Shown here in pieces: positions 500 through 14,431 of a DNA stretch of 24,000 nt; positions within the stretch are counted from its first letter, which is position 1, and every line of letters starts with the position of its first letter. Below the pieces are notes generated by a model that saw nothing but the letters and a program-made list of their open reading frames with translations, was not told the DNA's origin and ran no database searches. A program made the translations under genes and the position numbers. Location: the NCBI GenBank assembly GCA_013287665.1, contig JABDDK010000001.1, forward strand, positions 64,822 through 88,821, read 5' to 3'. The DNA is from Alphaproteobacteria bacterium (GTDB lineage Bacteria > Pseudomonadota > Alphaproteobacteria > UBA9655).

Positions 500-724
500 C
501 AGGGCCACCTCATGAAAATTTGTGAGGTGCCTTCACCTCTCCCCTTGTGGGAGAGGTCGCCCTTTAGGGCGGGTGAGGGGAGGCCGTATGCAGTGTTCTT
601 TGACATTTCTTTAAAGTCATATATCCCCCTCACCCGCCGCTGCGCGTCGACCTCTCCCACGCAGGGGAGAGGTGAAGGACTTCGTCCTTAAGAAAGAATA
701 TACGATTTTCATGAGGTGACCCCG
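500..724. mobile_element. Composite non-autonomous element: outer 20-bp TIRs enclosing an inverted pair of REP-like arms (531-580, 625-678) and a 44-bp remnant of the DUF559 gene 5' end (581-624)
   Basis: TIRs are CAGGGCCACCTCATGAAAAT (500-519) and ATTTTCATGAGGTGACCCCG (705-724), 18/20 complementary. They are flanked by the direct repeat GGTCTTAGCC at 490-499 and 725-734. The arms match copies at 972, 10410, 14056 and 20711. Confidence 0.7.
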
Positions 725-971: not shown

Positions 972-1166
972 CTTCACCTCGCCCCTTGTGGGAGAGGTCG
1001 CTCGAAGAGCGGGTGAGGGGGCCGTAATTTCAGTAAAACTCTCTGTTCATTAGTGGATATAGATAATCTTAATCAATAATGTCGGTCTGTACTTGTGTTG
1101 ACCACCCCCTCACCCGCCGCTTCGCGTCGACCTCTCCCACGAAGGGGAGAGGTGATGGTGCCTCAC
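972..1166. repeat. Inverted pair of REP-like arms (972-1020 and 1105-1166) with an 84-bp spacer
   Basis: Left arm is CTTCACCTCGCCCCTTGTGGGAGAGGTCGCTCGAAGAGCGGGTGAGGGG. Right arm is its inverted counterpart, ending GGTGATGGTGCCTCAC. The element fills the gap between the convergent stops of rpmG (967-969) and pdhC (1163-1165). Confidence 0.75.
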
Positions 1167-2401: not shown

Positions 2402-3424
2402 TTATGATTTATAACAAACAGCTTTAGCTGCTTCGATAATATCGGCAACTTGAGGAAGTGCCAAGTGCTCTAAATTCGCGGCATAAGGCATGGGAACATC
2501 AGCGCCCGTCACACGGAAGACAGGGGCGTCAAGGTAATCAAAGGCGTGTTCCATCATGAGGGCAGCGATTTCAGAGCCGATCCCCGCAAAGGGCCAGCTT
2601 TCCTCAACGGAGACGAGGCGGTTGGTTTTCATGACCGAGCGGACAATGGTCTCTGTATCAAGCGGTCTGATGGATCTCAAATCGATGACCTCTGCGTCAA
2701 TGCCAAGTTCAGCAAGGGCTTCAGCGGCTTCGAGTGCTTTTCCAACCATGATTGAGAAGGCCGTGATGGTCACATCCTTACCCGGACGGCGGATCAGGGC
2801 TTGCCCAATCGGCAGGACGTAATCTGGATCTTGCGAAACATCATCGAATGTATGTCCATAGAGAAGTTCATTTTCTAAGAAGATGACAGGATTTGGATCA
2901 CGAATAGCGGCCTTAAGAAGGGCTTTCGCATCTCCAGCACTATAAGGGCTCACAACCTTGAGGCCAGGGCAATGGGCGTACCAGCTGGCATAACAGTGGG
3001 AATGTTGAGCGCCAACGCGCGACGCTGCGCCATTCGGCCCACGGAAGACAATGGGACATCCCATTTGTCCGCCTGACATATAGAGTGTTTTAGCGGCAGA
3101 GTTGATGATCTGGTCAATAGCCTGCATGGAAAAGTTAAAGGTCATGAACTCCACGATGGGACGTAAGCCCCCAAACGCAGCTCCGACACCAAGTCCTGCA
3201 AAGCCGTGTTCTGTAATAGGGGTGTCCACAATCCGCTTTGAGCCAAACTCATCTAAAAGACCTTGGCTGACTTTGTAGGCTCCATTGTACTCAGCGACCT
3301 CTTCCCCCATTAAAAAGACGGTAGAGTCGCGCCGCATTTCTTCGGCCATACCGTCCCTCAGGGCTTCTCTTACGGTCATTGATGTGAGGCCTGGATTAGG
3401 CAGGGCTGTTTTTTCAACTGTCAT
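2402..3424 (-). CDS. pdhB: Pyruvate dehydrogenase E1 component beta subunit (short form, no N-terminal lipoyl domain)
   Basis: Transketolase-like pyrimidine-binding and C-terminal domains ([24 protein letters not shown]). The ATG overlaps the pdhA stop as ATGA at 3421-3424. Confidence 0.92.
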
Positions 3425-4407
3425 GTAACTGCATTCCCTTCATTCAGGATATCTGTATAAAGCTCGGAAGGATCGGGTTCAGGAGACGTCTTTGAAAACT
3501 CAACGGCTTCCAGGACGACAACTTTGATATCATCCTCGATCTTCTTGATTTTATCTTCAGAGATCTTAAGGGTTTTTGTCATATAAATTCTGAAATGATC
3601 AATAGGATCCCGGTCGACTTTGACGGTTTCAACTTCTTCCTTTGATCTGTATTTAGCAGGGTCTGACATGGAGTGACCGCGGTAACGGTAGGTGTCCATC
3701 TCGAGTATATAAGGCCCTTTGCCGGCCCGTGCATGGTCAACAGCGCGTGCTGCGGCTTCTTTGACAGCGGTGTACACCATGCCATCAACTTTCTCTCCAG
3801 GGATGTTCCAGCCCTGTCCACGACCATAATAATTTGGCCCAGCAGAGGAGCGTTCCTGAGAGGTTCCCATGCCGTAGTGATTGTTTTCAACGATAAAGAC
3901 GACAGGTAACTTCCAAAGGGAGGCCATGTTATAGGACTCATAGACCTGTCCTTGGTTGGCCGCTCCATCACCCATAGATGTGATCGATACACCTTTGTCC
4001 GCTTTGTATTTATGGGCAAAAGCAAGGCCTGTTCCAATAGGAACTTGAGCCCCCACAATACCGTGCCCGCCAAAGAAGTTCTTTTCTCGGCTGAACATAT
4101 GCATGGATCCACCCTTGCCCTTAGAGTAACCACCGCTACGTCCTGTAAGCTCTGCCATAACACCCTTCGGGTCCATACCCGCTGCGAGCATATGTCCATG
4201 GTCGCGGTACGCCGTAATGATGGTATCTTGAGGTTGAAGAATGGATTGAATGCCGACAACAACGGCTTCTTGACCAATGTAGAGATGGCAGAAACCTGCA
4301 ATGAGGCCCATACCGTACAACTGGGCGGCTCGCTCTTCAAAGCGGCGAATGAGGAGCATATCGTGATAAGCTTTTAGAGCCTCATCTTGAGAAATCAATT
4401 TTGACAA
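3421..4407 (-). CDS. pdhA: Pyruvate dehydrogenase E1 component alpha subunit
   Basis: TPP-binding region GDGAANQGQ...VENN and the conserved [11 protein letters not shown] loop. TTG start with a GAGGATGA RBS 5-6 nt upstream. Confidence 0.92.
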
Positions 4408-4441
4408 GTGTCATCCTCTATGTGAACTGATTAATGAGACA

Positions 4442-5109: not shown

Positions 5110-5190
5110 TCCTGAACTTCTGTCTAATTACGAATGAGTCATTTTTAACCTGGAAGAGAGGATATGTCTAGGGGAGTGGTTTTACACCAC

Positions 5191-5545
5191 GGTAAACGCA
5201 TCTAAATAGTAAAGAAACCCTATCCCCACTGGCGTCGTCCTCGCGAACGAGCCTGTAAAGAAAATAGAACGAACCCACTCACCGGTGTCCTTGGACAATA
5301 AAACCTTTGTTTTCCGAAGGAAAACTCTAGGTTTTATTGATCCGAGGATCTATTAGTGGGTAGCATGGATCCTCGGGCGAAGGAATGCTAGAGTTTTCCT
5401 TCGGAAAACAAAGCATTCCTTCCCCAAGGATGACACGTCTGGGGAGAGAATAGGTGAGTAGGTAATCATTTTCTTTACAGCCTCGTTCGCGAGGACGACG
5501 CCAGTGGGGACGTTAGGTTTTCCCTAAACTGTAGATGCGTTTACC
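5191..5545. repeat. 355-bp near-perfect palindromic (MITE-like) element
   Basis: Left arm 5191-5265 and right arm 5469-5545 are inverted copies. The termini GGTAAACGCATCTA and a 28-nt core CCCCACTGGCGTCGTCCTCGCGAACGAG are identical. Inner inverted repeats (TTTGTTTTCCGAAGGAAAACTCTA / TAGAGTTTTCCTTCGGAAAACAAA) continue to a centre near 5368. Confidence 0.7.
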
Positions 5546-5564
5546 CTGGTTTTACCCTTCGCTT

Positions 5565-7472: not shown

Positions 7473-7630
7473 AGCATGTCCGTAAATAAATGTGTCTCAT
7501 TTATATTACAATTATAAAAAAATGCAATGGTTAAAATTTAGTAAATATTCAATGGTGTTATTAACTTGATGGTGTAAGTTGTTGAAATCAAACAAAAGAT
7601 CGTTATTGCAAGAATGAGTGCTTATTGTAT

Positions 7631-7663
7631 CTTTTCTTAAGGACGAAGTCCTTCACAAATTTA
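7631..7663. repeat. Solo fragment equal to the two inner flanks of the 500-724 element, joined without the REP pair
   Basis: 7634-7656 (TTCTTAAGGACGAAGTCCTTCAC) is the exact reverse complement of 672-694. The following CACAAATTT matches the reverse complement of 517-525. Confidence 0.5.
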
Positions 7664-10409: not shown

Positions 10410-10837
10410 CTTCACCTCTCCCCTGCGTGGGAGAGGTCGACCCGAAGGGTCGGGTGAGGGGCATTTAAAATCATCTCCAAAACTCCCTCAATATTACTAA
10501 GCACATCATTATTCCAAAAACGGATAACTTTAAATCCATTCATTTCAAGAATACGTGTCCGCTGATTATCATAGGCTTCTTGGTCAGCATGTTGTCCTCC
10601 ATCGAGTTCAATCACTAGTTTTTTCTTAAGGCAAACGAAATCAACAATGTAGTTTTGCAACATATGTTGACGCCTAAACTTCCAACCATAAAACCTCCGA
10701 TCTCTAAGATGATACCAAAGACGACTTTCGGCGTCAGTTTGATTTGTGCGTAGTGTTTTTTGAAATCTCTTTAGAGTCATATTTCCCCCTCACCCGACCC
10801 TGCGGGTCGACCTCTCCCACGCAGGGGAGAGGTGAAG
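10410..10837 (-). mobile_element. Full-length member of the REP-like family: DUF559 gene enclosed by two inverted about 52-nt arms (10410-10461, 10785-10837)
   Basis: Both arms are near-identical inverted copies (CTTCACCTCTCCCCTGCGTGGGAGAGGTCGACCC-GAA/GCA-GGGTCGGGTGAGGGG). The ORF starts 5 nt inside one arm and terminates inside the other. Confidence 0.6.
10412..10780 (-). CDS. DUF559 endonuclease-domain protein (Vsr-like nuclease fold)
   Basis: The sequence TDAESRLWYHLRDRRFYGWKFRRQH...IVDFVC...LVIELDGGQHA...RFWNNDVL is the DUF559 hallmark. The last 16 codons (NAPHPTLRVDLSHAGER) and the stop are encoded by the repeat arm. Confidence 0.8.
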   Translation of the reverse strand: MTLKRFQKTLRTNQTDAESRLWYHLRDRRFYGWKFRRQHMLQNYIVDFVCLKKKLVIELDGGQHADQEAYDNQRTRILEMNGFKVIRFWNNDVLSNIEGVLEMILNAPHPTLRVDLSHAGER

Positions 10838-10967
10838 AAATTCCATATGGGCAATTAAAAACCCGTCCTCAAATTGACAGAAATCAAAATTGAAATAACC
10901 TCATAAATGTAAAATCCCACCCGTGTGCCTGGATTTTACTCCCCACAATCACGAAAAGGATACCACC

Positions 10968-12134
10968 ATGATGCAGTCAACATCTGCCCTGGAACAGGGT
11001 TCATTTAACTCGCCTCCAAAAAATCGACTTGTTGTTTTACGAAGAGAATTCATGGATCTCACCAAGGATCCTCTTATCGCTATTGTCCTTAATCAACTGG
11101 TGTATTGGTCCCGTCGGGTTCAGGATTACTCCTCCTACTTGCAAGAAGAAAAAGAGAGCAAAACCAACCCTCAATTTGGGTGGATATATAAGGCGTCCGA
11201 CGAGCTTATTGAGGAAACCTTAATCGGTGTGGACCGCGCCACTATGTGTCGGTACCTTAATTTCCTCATTGAAAATGAATGGATCCTGCGGCGGTCAAAT
11301 CCCCATAACCCTTGGGACAAAATTCCTCAATATCGGGTTAACCTCCGAAAACTGGAAACGGACCTCTTTGAGCTCGGACACCCCGTTCCAAGCGAACAAA
11401 ACTCGACGTCGCAAAATGCAACGTCGACGTTGCAAAATGCGCAGTCGACGTCGCAAATTGCAACTTCATATACTTATACAGAGACTACTATCAAAGATGA
11501 CAAACAGAAAGAAGAAGCGCGCGCGCGAATTGTAAAAATGAGGGAAGTTTGGCAATCCCATATGCCATACGATCAATTTGAGCTGACAGAGAGCCGGCTC
11601 CAGCAAATGGAGGCTTTGTTAAAGAGAGAGTTCCGCGATGATCTTGAGGAGTGGGGGCGATTTTGTATTCGTGTGAAGGAGTGCCCTTTCTTGATGGGAC
11701 AAGGCTCTCGTGGATGGCGTATCCGCTTGGATTGGTTGCTCAACTTAGATAATTTTCAAAAGGTTCAAGACGGTCACTACGAGGAATATGATCGGCCCAT
11801 GATGGTTTTCATTGATCCTCCTCAACACCCTAAAGTGACAGAAATCCTTGACAGCATCAAGGATCCCAAGTGGAAAGAGTGGTGCACCAAAATGGCGGAG
11901 GGACTCAAGCTTCCGAGTGGGCAAATGATTGAAAAACGATTGTCAGTGAATGACCTAGAAGTCATAAAAGATGCCTGGTTTATCGAGTATGACGATGACT
12001 TCCTGGTCTGGATTGGAAGCCACGATCAACGCGTTCTCAACAAGATTGAAGACCTACGCGTCAAAATCAACTGGGCCTTTAAAGCGGATTATTTTGAAGG
12101 AAGATCCTTCCGAACACGGCTGATTGAAAAGTGA
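10968..12134 (+). CDS. Orphan protein with an N-terminal winged-helix-like DNA-binding region; possible replication/organizer-type protein of a mobile element
   Basis: ATG 10968 is preferred over the track's GTG 10923 because an AAAGGA RBS lies about 8 nt upstream. The N-terminal region (ASDELIEETLIGVDRATMCRYLNFLIENEWILR) looks like an HTH/wHTH. A Ser/Thr/Gln linker is encoded by the iterons. The C-terminal half has no family I can name. Confidence 0.55.
   Translation: MMQSTSALEQGSFNSPPKNRLVVLRREFMDLTKDPLIAIVLNQLVYWSRRVQDYSSYLQEEKESKTNPQFGWIYKASDELIEETLIGVDRATMCRYLNFLIENEWILRRSNPHNPWDKIPQYRVNLRKLETDLFELGHPVPSEQNSTSQNATSTLQNAQSTSQIATSYTYTETTIKDDKQKEEARARIVKMREVWQSHMPYDQFELTESRLQQMEALLKREFRDDLEEWGRFCIRVKECPFLMGQGSRGWRIRLDWLLNLDNFQKVQDGHYEEYDRPMMVFIDPPQHPKVTEILDSIKDPKWKEWCTKMAEGLKLPSGQMIEKRLSVNDLEVIKDAWFIEYDDDFLVWIGSHDQRVLNKIEDLRVKINWAFKADYFEGRSFRTRLIEK
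11403..11465 (+). repeat. Three tandem 21-bp iteron-like repeats containing an 18-bp perfect palindrome
   Basis: The repeats are TCGACGTCGCAAAATGCAACG, TCGACGTTGCAAAATGCGCAG and TCGACGTCGCAAATTGCAACT. TGCAACGTCGACGTTGCA (11417-11434) is a perfect palindrome. The repeats are in frame and encode STSQNAT/STLQNAQ/STSQIAT. Confidence 0.85.
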
Positions 12135-14051: not shown

Positions 14052-14055
14052 ACCA

Positions 14056-14401
14056 TCACCTCTCCCCGCGTGGGAGAGGTCGACGCGCAGCGGCGGGTCA
14101 CTGCCATTAAGTTAAGGAAAATTGTCTCGAGGTGGGTCGTCCCGGGAATGAGAATTTCTTGAGCAAAGCTCAAGATTTCTCATTGCCCGGGATCCAGGAG
14201 CAATACTATTGCGTAAGCAATACAACGCTCCTTTATAAAGAAAATCATTACATTCCTGCGGAATGAATTATTAGCCCTGGATCCCCGATCCGCGCTTCGC
14301 GCTCTCGAGGACGACCCTAGGGGTGGGCAGTTTGCTTAACTTAATGGCAGTGGCCCTGAAGGGCGACCTCTCCCACAAGGAGAGAGGTGAGGGTGCCTCA
14401 C
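14056..14401. repeat. REP-like arm pair (14056-14098 and 14353-14401) interrupted by a nested element
   Basis: The left arm TCACCTCTCCCCGCGTGGGAGAGGTCGACGCGCAGCGGCGGGT is truncated before GAGGGG. The right arm GCCCTGAAGGGCGACCTCTCCCACAAGGAGAGAGGTGAGGGTGCCTCAC lacks the CCCCTCACCC end. Confidence 0.65.
14099..14352. mobile_element. 254-bp MITE-like element nested inside the REP pair
   Basis: Perfect 18-bp TIRs: CACTGCCATTAAGTTAAG (14099-14116) and CTTAACTTAATGGCAGTG (14335-14352). Internal long hairpins are present. It shares a GGGTCGTCCTCG-type motif with the 5191-5545 palindrome. Confidence 0.6.
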
Positions 14402-14431
14402 GTATTCCATTAGGTGCCCTTGATGAGTCGG

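Follow-up and report, generated by a model that had tools for sequence, protein, structure and literature searches.

The repeat known as BoxC (Bergler 1992) has been described again as PIT (potential intrastrand triplex) elements (Hoyne and Maher 2000, 2002) and as TM (triplex motif) or TMECO repeats (Holder et al. 2015, PMC4666352). Escherichia coli K-12 carries 23 BoxC copies, among them five inverted pairs, each composed of one type A and one type B arm, and the triplex of the E. coli sequence was demonstrated by circular dichroism, nuclear magnetic resonance and an in vivo dimethyl sulfate footprint (PMC4666352). The repeats have been linked to local rearrangement, mobility functions were 'never found' near them, and no associated gene was reported (PMC4666352). 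The same paper cites Hoyne and Maher (2002) for a block to DNA polymerase at PIT elements in vitro. Here we describe a locus at 10410-10837 of a 24-kb stretch of the alphaproteobacterial contig JABDDK010000001.1 (the window), at which a gene encoding a DUF559 protein is enclosed by two inverted copies, or arms, of a short structured repeat. This locus is most likely a protein-coding form of the BoxC/PIT/TM repeat, the gene-less arm pairs in the same window and the BoxC pairs elsewhere being shortened derivatives or relatives of it. To our knowledge, DUF559 is a large family that extends across many bacterial phyla, includes E. coli YcjD and the solved structure 3HRL, and has no known role.

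On the minus strand the locus reads as an arm (10837-10786), the tetranucleotide AAAT, an ATG at 10780, 122 codons, a TGA at 10414-10412, and the second arm (10461-10410), in agreement with the order given in the preliminary description of this DNA. The two resident arms, each 52 nt long, are inverted relative to each other and identical at 51 of 52 bases, while none of 100 shuffles of the window gave a match; an inverted-repeat search on them returned 53 nt at 98%. The sole mismatch falls in the loop of hairpin 2 (GCAG versus GAAG). The arm 5' of the gene (10786-10837, minus strand, tail inward) starts with CTTC and continues with hairpin 1, written pyrimidine strand first and purine strand last (ACCTCTCCC-CTGCGT-GGGAGAGGT), then a C, hairpin 2 (GACCC-GCA-GGGTC), and finally a G-rich tail, GGGTGAGGGG, which mirrors the purine strand. 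It scored 64.4 bits with R1, a covariance model built mostly from arms of other genomes, folded as DNA with z = -2.9 to -3.5, and gave a sub-threshold match to the Rfam family whalefall-1 across the whole model. The arm 3' of the gene (10410-10461, plus strand, tail inward) is an inverted copy of the first with the one mismatch, and scored 65.0 bits. The DUF559 gene itself occupies 10412-10780 of the minus strand (122 codons and TGA), with the domain at residues 3-106 and residues 107-122 encoded by the arm, such that the last 50 nt of the open reading frame (ORF) fall within the 3' arm. This arm encodes APHPTLRVDLSHAGER and the stop, its complement reading (A)PHPTLRVDLSHAGER up to the stop codon; the earlier statement that it holds the last 16 codons and the TGA was essentially right, the precise content being 15 whole codons, two bases of the 16th, and the stop. 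At the 5' end of the gene, the terminal GAGGGGG of the tail and the AAAT (10781-10791, minus strand) immediately precede the ATG and may, by their sequence and spacing, act as a Shine-Dalgarno-like signal. A sequence scan at the locus found no sigma-70-like promoter between the 5' arm and the ATG.

The architecture of the arm was then defined over a wider collection. A scan for the hairpin-1 pattern, with one genome per species, returned at least 107 loci, which came from Bradyrhizobium, Mesorhizobium, Xanthomonadales, Legionellales, Coxiellaceae, Cysteiniphilum, Paracaedibacteraceae and others, and 89 distinct aligned arms gave the consensus TTC-ACCTCTCCC-CTTGT-GGGAGAGGT-C-(hairpin 2)-GGGTGAGGGG. 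The 9-bp stem of ACCTCTCCC with GGGAGAGGT is found in all ten arms of the window, and its 3' strand is 97% purine in 146 arms. Hairpin 2 is free in both sequence and length while its pairing is conserved: all ten of its base pairs change on both sides, 90% of the cells are paired, and the covariation score was 0.228, as against at most 0.036 when the partners were slid. At distant DUF559 loci hairpin 2 is absent and hairpin 1 itself covaries, its variants (CCCTCTCCCC/GGGGAGAGGG, CCCCCTCCC/GGGAGGGGG, CCTTCCCCC/GGGGGAAGG and CCTTCTCCCCC/GGGGGAGAAGG) always placing the pyrimidines 5' and the purines 3'. The tail follows these changes as the mirror of the purine strand; for example, GGGGGAGAAGG is accompanied by the tail GGATGAGGGGG, and the mirrored purine strand GGAGAGGG can be aligned with the tail GGTGAGGG. 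Over the 146 arms, compatibility with G*G, A*A and T*A triads was 94.7% when the tail was read as a mirror and 88.6% when it was read directly; 69 arms fitted the mirror reading better and 6 the direct one. When tails were shuffled among arms, compatibility fell to 0.871 +/- 0.004, and the highest value in 500 shuffles (0.885) stayed below the observed one. Since a mirror repeat is meaningless both for Watson-Crick pairing and for a protein that reads duplex DNA, this symmetry appears to be the signature of an intramolecular purine-motif triple helix, in which the G-rich tail of each arm could occupy the groove of hairpin 1 as the third strand.

Judged by this architecture, the arms can be assigned to the known BoxC/PIT/TM family of intrastrand triplex motifs, as a structural variant. 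Shared with that family are the hairpin of pyrimidine tract, loop and purine tract, the G-rich block that comes next as a mirror image of the purine tract (class II purine motif), and the multi-copy, intergenic occurrence, often as inverted pairs of two arm subtypes with the tails facing. The differences lie in the stem, which is ACCTCTCCC/GGGAGAGGT (starting with A) in the window and CCCTCNCCC/GGGNGAGGG in E. coli, and in the second loop, where the 3 nt of E. coli are replaced by a covarying hairpin of 11-45 nt. The window arms, in which this hairpin is 13-16 nt long, depart from the published E. coli consensus CCCTCNCCC-N3-6-GGGNGAGGG-N3-GGGNGAGGG, and they are a variant rather than TMECO in the strict sense. 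R1 nonetheless recognised E. coli BoxC copy no. 9 at 29.2 bits; this copy, listed in Table 1 of PMC4666352, lies 170 nt from ycjD, although the words endonuclease, DUF and ycjD are absent from that paper. The label 'REP-like' (REP, repetitive extragenic palindrome) in the preliminary description had to be abandoned in favour of BoxC/PIT/TM: with two hairpins and a mirrored tail the arm is not a simple imperfect palindrome, and the conserved GT[AG]G foot of REPs (GTAG) is lacking.

The arms also resemble whalefall-1 (RF01762), described as a noncoding RNA known solely from whale-fall metagenomes. Both have the same order and the same mirror logic, namely a hairpin (CUCUCC/GGAGAG in whalefall-1), a variable second hairpin, and then the mirrored block (GGGUGAGG). 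The match at 10412-10461 (local E 6e-4) extends over the full length of the model and shares its two-hairpin layout, but at 21.5 bits it is below the gathering score of 37, and no Rfam match at the gathering score was found in the window or in 20 related loci. Weinberg is said to have described whalefall-1 as an 'sRNA' (small RNA) in 2010. A reading of the arms as genes for a small structured RNA of this kind, unrelated to the ORF, would draw on this match, yet it is highly unlikely in view of the low score, the presence of the arms in both orientations and as inverted pairs, the location of one arm inside a coding sequence, and the mirror symmetry of the tail, which suits a purine-motif triplex of DNA. 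By analogy, whalefall-1 may itself be a triplex-type DNA repeat instead of a small RNA.

To measure the association without selecting for arms, 80 metagenome loci were retrieved by DUF559 alignment alone and then scanned with R1, the source arms of which are unrelated to these loci. A tail-inward arm was located within 130 nt before the start of the gene at 54 of 77 loci, and an arm overlapping or just past its 3' end at 44 of 75, while the background arm density more than 300 nt from the gene (0.072 per kb) predicts only about 0.4 in 77. DUF559 genes of this clade are, therefore, bracketed about 130 times more often than expected from the background, and the gene-between-inverted-arms layout, first noted at a single locus, is real, systematic and recurrent. 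Counting R1 matches at E <= 0.01 among the loci with enough flank on both sides, both arms were present at 34/72 and at least one at 52/72; about 10 further loci on each side had a tail-outward arm. Loci without model matches often have other arms of the same logic, such as CCCCGCCC/GGGCGGGG with GGGGGCGGG in one metagenome locus (L162), and the distance from tail to ATG ranges from 0 to about 100 nt. In the opposite direction, a DUF559 ORF was present in 4 of the 107 arm-seeded loci listed, all four within 62 nt of an arm. Remnants were sought with core-only DUF559 queries, as full-length queries mostly matched the arm-encoded tail to the partner arm; among 121 arms from genomes, 10 had core sequence on the tail side, and 1-2 had it on the outer side. 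At the listed loci, the arms of a tail-inward pair are 90-190 nt apart when the gene is absent and about 410-430 nt apart when it is present, and no such pair encloses a gene other than DUF559.

The junction between gene and arm is also conserved. Many homologs of 50-85% identity end in an arm-encoded tail, such as TPHPPLRGDLSHKGRG or TPHPxxxRPLPQGER, and some have arm-encoded N-terminal extensions. Since 62 of the 76 homologs with such a tail read it in the PHP frame, the gene-arm junction has been inherited and not re-created. Arms flank the DUF559 gene on both sides, tails outward, in Deinococcus aetherius and Synechocystis sp. B12, and on one side in Azospirillum, Sinorhizobium and Neisseria gonorrhoeae, and C5/G5 versions of the motif form arrays in Picosynechococcus. 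On the plasmid of Picosynechococcus sp. PCC 7003 (L193), tandem C5-loop-G5-TTA-G5 hairpins, a minimal all-G/C form of the triplex motif, follow the DUF559 gene at 930-1060. The association of DUF559 with BoxC appears to be new, each of the two families being known by itself: as the preliminary description supposed, no paper in the literature searched links DUF559 or ycjD to these repeats, although subscription papers, including the original BoxC and PIT reports, lay outside that search and may hold an earlier mention.

Gene and arms are inherited as a unit. Similarity between this locus and four related ones (L108, L109, L110 and L077) is confined to 10414-10833, breaking off where the arms do on their outer side, with unrelated genes beyond. 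Comparison with L108, L109 and L077 gave dN/dS of 0.06-0.12 at dS of 0.8-2.0; thus, the DUF559 gene is under strong purifying selection, and hairpin 1 and the tail are unchanged even though the synonymous sites are near saturation. In L108, a full DUF559 element is separated from a DUF559 3' remnant and the arm of that remnant by a cassette of TacA antitoxin and GNAT toxin (2820-4430), and three copies of CTTAAACATCAATTTTTTTACCAAAAAAAGATAYATAAAATTTTAT mark the cassette junctions.

The four further inverted arm pairs reported earlier for this window are likewise real: R1 recovered all ten window arms at 33-70 bits, with E values of 7e-6 to 3e-15 for the arms of these four loci. Two of the pairs are 148 bp long. 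One is at 531-678 (minus strand), with arms 531-580(+) (hairpin 2 GCCC-TTTA-GGGC; 69.7 bits) and 626-677(-) (hairpin 2 GACGC-GCA-GCGGC; 62.9 bits) and a DNA fold of -50.9 kcal/mol (z = -10.6); the other is at 20711-20858 (plus strand), with arms 20711-20762(+) and 20809-20858(-) (62.9 and 66.6 bits; fold z = -10.3). They are 96% identical to each other over 103 nt and 89% identical to the full copy over 89 nt. Beside one arm, both retain about 40 nt of the DUF559 5' end (ATATATGACTTTAAAGAAATGTCAAAGAACACTGC, as against AAATATGACTCTAAAGAGATTTCAAAAAACACTAC in the full copy). The interior of the first pair (581-625) retains, as a remnant, the DUF559 leader with the first ~13 codons, and the interior of the second pair (20763-20808) has the same remnant and the same deletion junction. 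Because they keep these first ~13 codons and share one junction, the two 148-bp pairs represent a deletion derivative that was afterwards copied to a second locus. Graded DUF559 remnants occur elsewhere as well (L094, L021 and L029). Of the remaining two pairs, the one at 972-1166 (arms 972-1020(+) and 1106-1157(-); 61.4 and 63.0 bits) begins 2 nt past the rpmG stop codon and has an 85-nt interior without a recognisable DUF559 remnant, and the one at 14054-14392 (arms 14054-14098(+) and 14353-14392(-); 41.6 and 33.2 bits) has lost both G-rich tails. In the latter, a foreign inverted-repeat element at 14095-14356 (arms GGGTCACTGCCATTAAGTTAAGGAAA) fills the centre of the pair and replaces both tails, which suggests that arm pairs have a hotspot for insertion at their centre. 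The pairs at 531-678, 972-1166 and 20711-20858 each join an arm of the GCCC..GGGC type (GCTC..GAGC at 972-1020) to one of the GACGC..GCGGC type, as the rule of two subtypes per pair in PMC4666352 also has it.

Several other features of the window adjoin these pairs. The pair at 531-678 is nested within a second inverted-repeat element (487-745), whose terminal repeats approximate GGGSYCACCTCATGAAAAT (506-524 and 705-723) and which is bounded by an 11-nt direct repeat, GGGTCTTAGCC (489-499 and 726-736). The orthologous intergenic site in a related locus (L071) is empty of the whole 497-745 insertion, in which the two nested elements are combined and the boundaries of the arm pair are not separable. 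A 29-nt sequence, GTGAAGGACTTCGTCCTTAAGAAAGAATA, adjoins one arm at 672-700 and recurs inverted and without an arm 7 kb away (7628-7656); in L048, a stretch resembling it is found after a truncated arm. L071, L048 and sequences of Caedimonadaceae are the nearest DNA and protein matches, and from them the source appears to be an uncultured alphaproteobacterium. Three of the ten arms share an outer extension, GGTGCCTCAC (519-530, 1157-1169 and 14396-14408), one of which contains the stop codon of a minus-strand ORF (1163-2386), and four outer arm ends are within 0-6 nt of the stop codon of a neighbouring gene. At some distance from the arms, 5186-5550 is a different palindromic element composed of three nested inverted repeats (5186-5222/5514-5550, 5223-5265/5468-5510 and 5288-5353/5365-5430), part of which (5368-5436) recurs in L079 and L001. 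Two large minus-strand ORFs, 15254-19396 (1380 aa) and 20922-23843 (973 aa), carry tandem coding repeats of 96 nt and 192 nt, and an ORF at 10923-12134, which has no Pfam match, carries 21-nt repeats (11403-11467).

The protein belongs to Pfam DUF559 (PF04480; E 6e-44, 148.8 bits versus a cut-off of 20.6), with 4574 homologs. Its closest solved relative is 3HRL of N. gonorrhoeae (E 1.6e-29 over residues 14-106), and its score of 110.2 bits with NCBIfam PRK09767 (the YcjD family), below the equivalog cut-off of 218, indicates a YcjD homolog and not an equivalog. Of 30 homologs, all have D47, D60 and D71, and at least 90% have E58, Q63 and H64. The only other Pfam match was MTES_1575, below its cut-off, and no transposase domain was found. 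Pfam groups DUF559 with Vsr, and the homing endonuclease I-Bth0305I (3R3P) has been placed with DUF559 (PMC3424549). The protein is nonetheless not Vsr, as it matches DUF559 and not the Vsr family and no cytosine methyltransferase gene adjoins it, the neighbours being an enoyl-CoA hydratase gene and an ORF without a Pfam match; the name 'Vsr' given by JGI to many of these DUF559 proteins is thus an over-annotation. An anti-phage defence role was also considered and rejected, since the PADLOC matches (DpdF, E 9e-5; mREase_II, E 0.002; Hhe, E 0.003) are weak ones to nuclease domains of much larger proteins.

The association can be followed into E. coli, where the C-terminus of K-12 YcjD (RSPSP and the stop) is encoded by a decayed arm, and where the gene is followed by a duplicated ycjD 3' remnant and then by BoxC copy no. 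9 (K-12 1351200-1351420). In genomes without ycjD, similarity to K-12 breaks about 40 nt from this BoxC copy, and in O157:H7 the eef efflux operon stands in place of ycjD, such that the ycjD-negative allele is no empty arm pair. Among the 30 genomes listed, those with ycjD had about 3.2 extra places matching the query and those without it about 1.7, a difference that is confounded by phylogroup and by the 28-nt word of megablast, and was not relied on.

Taken together, these results make some functional coupling between DUF559 and the triplex arms likely, this estimate being roughly the sum of the three readings considered below in which the protein acts on the arms. The best fit, given the small number of genes relative to arms and the deletion derivatives, is a relationship like that of RAYT (REP-associated tyrosine transposase) and REPIN, with a cognate nuclease, a coding master copy and gene-less derivatives, which we regard as a real possibility that nevertheless falls short of an even chance. 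DUF559 would be the repeat family's own nuclease; it would recognise the arm when folded, as hairpin and triplex, on single-stranded DNA (ssDNA), and would nick it, and host replication and repair would copy or keep the arm pairs, much as a single-copy RAYT gene flanked by REPs sustains REPIN pairs. The broader proposal, that BoxC/PIT/TM repeats in general are the gene-less progeny of a DUF559-encoding element, and hence a second system of the REPIN/RAYT kind, in which a Vsr-fold nuclease would recognise an intramolecular DNA triplex, is put forward more tentatively. As for the 'autonomous parent' of the preliminary description, one part stands, in that gene-less pairs far outnumber gene-bearing ones and some are deletion derivatives; the other part, that DUF559 moves the arms, is unsupported, the protein being a hydrolytic nuclease and no target-site duplication having been found.

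A number of observations weigh against the RAYT/REPIN-like relationship. PD-(D/E)XK nucleases hydrolyse DNA and cannot rejoin it, and a nuclease alone cannot transpose. Comparison of the flanks revealed no consistent target-site duplication at the five window elements, GACT being present on both sides at 20711-20858 only. The hairpin 2 of the resident arms (GACCC..GGGTC) is unlike that of all eight other window arms, and the local pairs were therefore not recently derived from the resident copy. Most arm-seeded loci, for example those of Bradyrhizobium, have no DUF559 remnant. Arm polarity varies, with the tails outward at about 10 of the 77 DUF559 loci and also in E. coli, Deinococcus and Synechocystis, which is awkward for arms as the fixed ends of a transposon. 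In E. coli, ycjD is single-copy at a fixed locus, ycjD-like DNA is absent from 2048 of 5426 complete genomes (38%), and the listed ycjD-negative genomes still have other matching places, which are probably BoxC copies. Arm-rich genomes without DUF559 had been named at the outset as evidence against a link, and these E. coli genomes are in part such a case, although the repeats may persist there as fossils after gene loss. Lastly, most E. coli BoxC copies are at conserved loci and hence not visibly mobile (PMC4666352).

Alternatively, DUF559 may be a selfish gene of the homing type. Arm pairs would then have come first and spread otherwise, DUF559 would cut pairs lacking the gene in or close to the spacer that separates the tails, and repair via the 50-nt arm homology would copy the gene in, for which a hydrolytic nuclease suffices. 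The invariable position of the gene exactly between the two tails, the presence of a Vsr-like fold in the homing endonuclease I-Bth0305I (3R3P; PMC3424549), the acceptance of other inserts by the centre of an arm pair (e.g., 14095-14356), and the finding that DUF559 segments of Legionella are recombination hotspots, like the GIY-YIG homing endonucleases there (PMC12308824), all agree with such a scheme. However, an active homing gene should have filled many of the dozens of target pairs per genome, yet gene-bearing pairs are rare (one of five here, 4 of the 107 listed loci, one copy in E. coli), the 148-bp pairs of the window are duplicated deletion derivatives and not empty targets, and the spread of the arms would be left unexplained; we consider homing rather unlikely. 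A nuclease that acts on the arms for the benefit of the host, removing or nicking intrastrand triplexes that stall replication, and linked to them through regulation by the arms or by travelling with its substrates, appears quite improbable. The block of DNA polymerase by PIT elements, in the report of Hoyne and Maher as cited, the strong purifying selection, the fixed single copy of ycjD, and the fold, which is that of the repair nuclease Vsr, would all suit a repair function, but the gene is dispensable to the 38% of complete E. coli genomes without ycjD, and two-sided bracketing, with similarity that ends at the arms amid different neighbours, looks like a mobile unit.

It is also conceivable, though unlikely, that gene and arms have no enzymatic relationship, the triplex repeats being fragile sites that gather inserts, or the arms controlling the expression of a potentially toxic nuclease, with the tail as ribosome-binding site and the arms pairing in the transcript to hide it. 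The tie of the repeats to local rearrangement (PMC4666352), and the toxin-antitoxin cassette that adjoins an arm in L108, are in line with this, as are the absence of any promoter found inside the element and the prediction that the whole transcript would fold into a panhandle of ~55 bp that buries GAGGGGG-AAAT-ATG. A fragile site, however, would collect varied genes, while the tail-inward pairs at the loci listed enclose DUF559 or nothing; the frame of the gene-arm junction is conserved, and the association spans several phyla. As for control of expression, purine-motif triplexes do not form in RNA, according to Semerad and Maher (1994) as cited in PMC4666352, and mirror covariation therefore points to a role in DNA and not in the transcript; the distance between tail and ATG is, moreover, variable. 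A programmed inversion switch, in which recombination between the inverted arms would flip the gene on or off, has in its favour that 'DUF559 domain-containing protein' is enriched among predicted inversion targets (odds ratio 14.3, corrected P 3e-5; PMC9881135). This enrichment is, however, to be expected when coding sequences flanked by arms enter an inverted-repeat scan, and is probably a by-product of the arms; no invertase gene is nearby, flipping a segment between symmetric arms alters nothing relative to them, and there is no promoter outside the element where flipping would matter, all of which makes the switch very unlikely.

If the RAYT/REPIN-like relationship between DUF559 and the arms is true, it would provide DUF559, including E. 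coli YcjD, with a first function. BoxC/PIT/TM repeats have been known for more than 30 years without a known origin, function or mobiliser, and the two families would then explain each other, in that DUF559 may be the long-missing protein partner of the BoxC repeat. A nuclease specific for a DNA triplex would be new biochemistry, and the system would be a second, independent instance of the RAYT/REPIN way of life. E. coli is well suited to testing these ideas, with a single-copy ycjD, 23 BoxC sites in K-12, and natural ycjD-negative lineages. The arms also explain a number of annotation artefacts, namely the arm-encoded extensions at either terminus of DUF559 proteins, their 'Vsr' names, and the enrichment of DUF559 among 'programmed inversion' targets.

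Among the known systems, REP/REPIN-RAYT shares with the present one a rare or single-copy nuclease gene that is flanked by inverted short structured repeats, with gene-less pairs scattered elsewhere; a repeat that acts as folded ssDNA, which for the present arms is proposed; the lack of target-site duplication; and purifying selection on the gene. It differs in that RAYT is an HUH Y1 (IS200/IS605-like) transposase, whereas the present protein is predicted to be a hydrolytic, Vsr-fold PD-(D/E)XK nuclease; in the repeat, which here is a hairpin and triplex element without the REP GTAG foot; and in the placement of the stop codon and C-terminal tail inside the repeat and the variation of arm polarity between clades. 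Miniature inverted-repeat transposable elements and their parent insertion sequences likewise have terminal inverted repeats, short, internally deleted copies that outnumber the coding copy, and identical deletion derivatives at separate loci (here 531-678 and 20711-20858). In contrast to them, the locus has no DDE, serine or tyrosine transposase and no target-site duplication, and its inverted repeats are conserved folded motifs common to several bacterial phyla. I-Bth0305I and free-standing homing genes resemble it as small nuclease genes of related fold in the middle of conserved sequence, the spread of which could use host repair, but the presumed target here is a dispersed repeat and not one particular site within a conserved gene, most of the pairs that could hold the gene lack it, and there is no intron or intein context. 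With Vsr endonuclease, finally, the protein has its fold superfamily in common.

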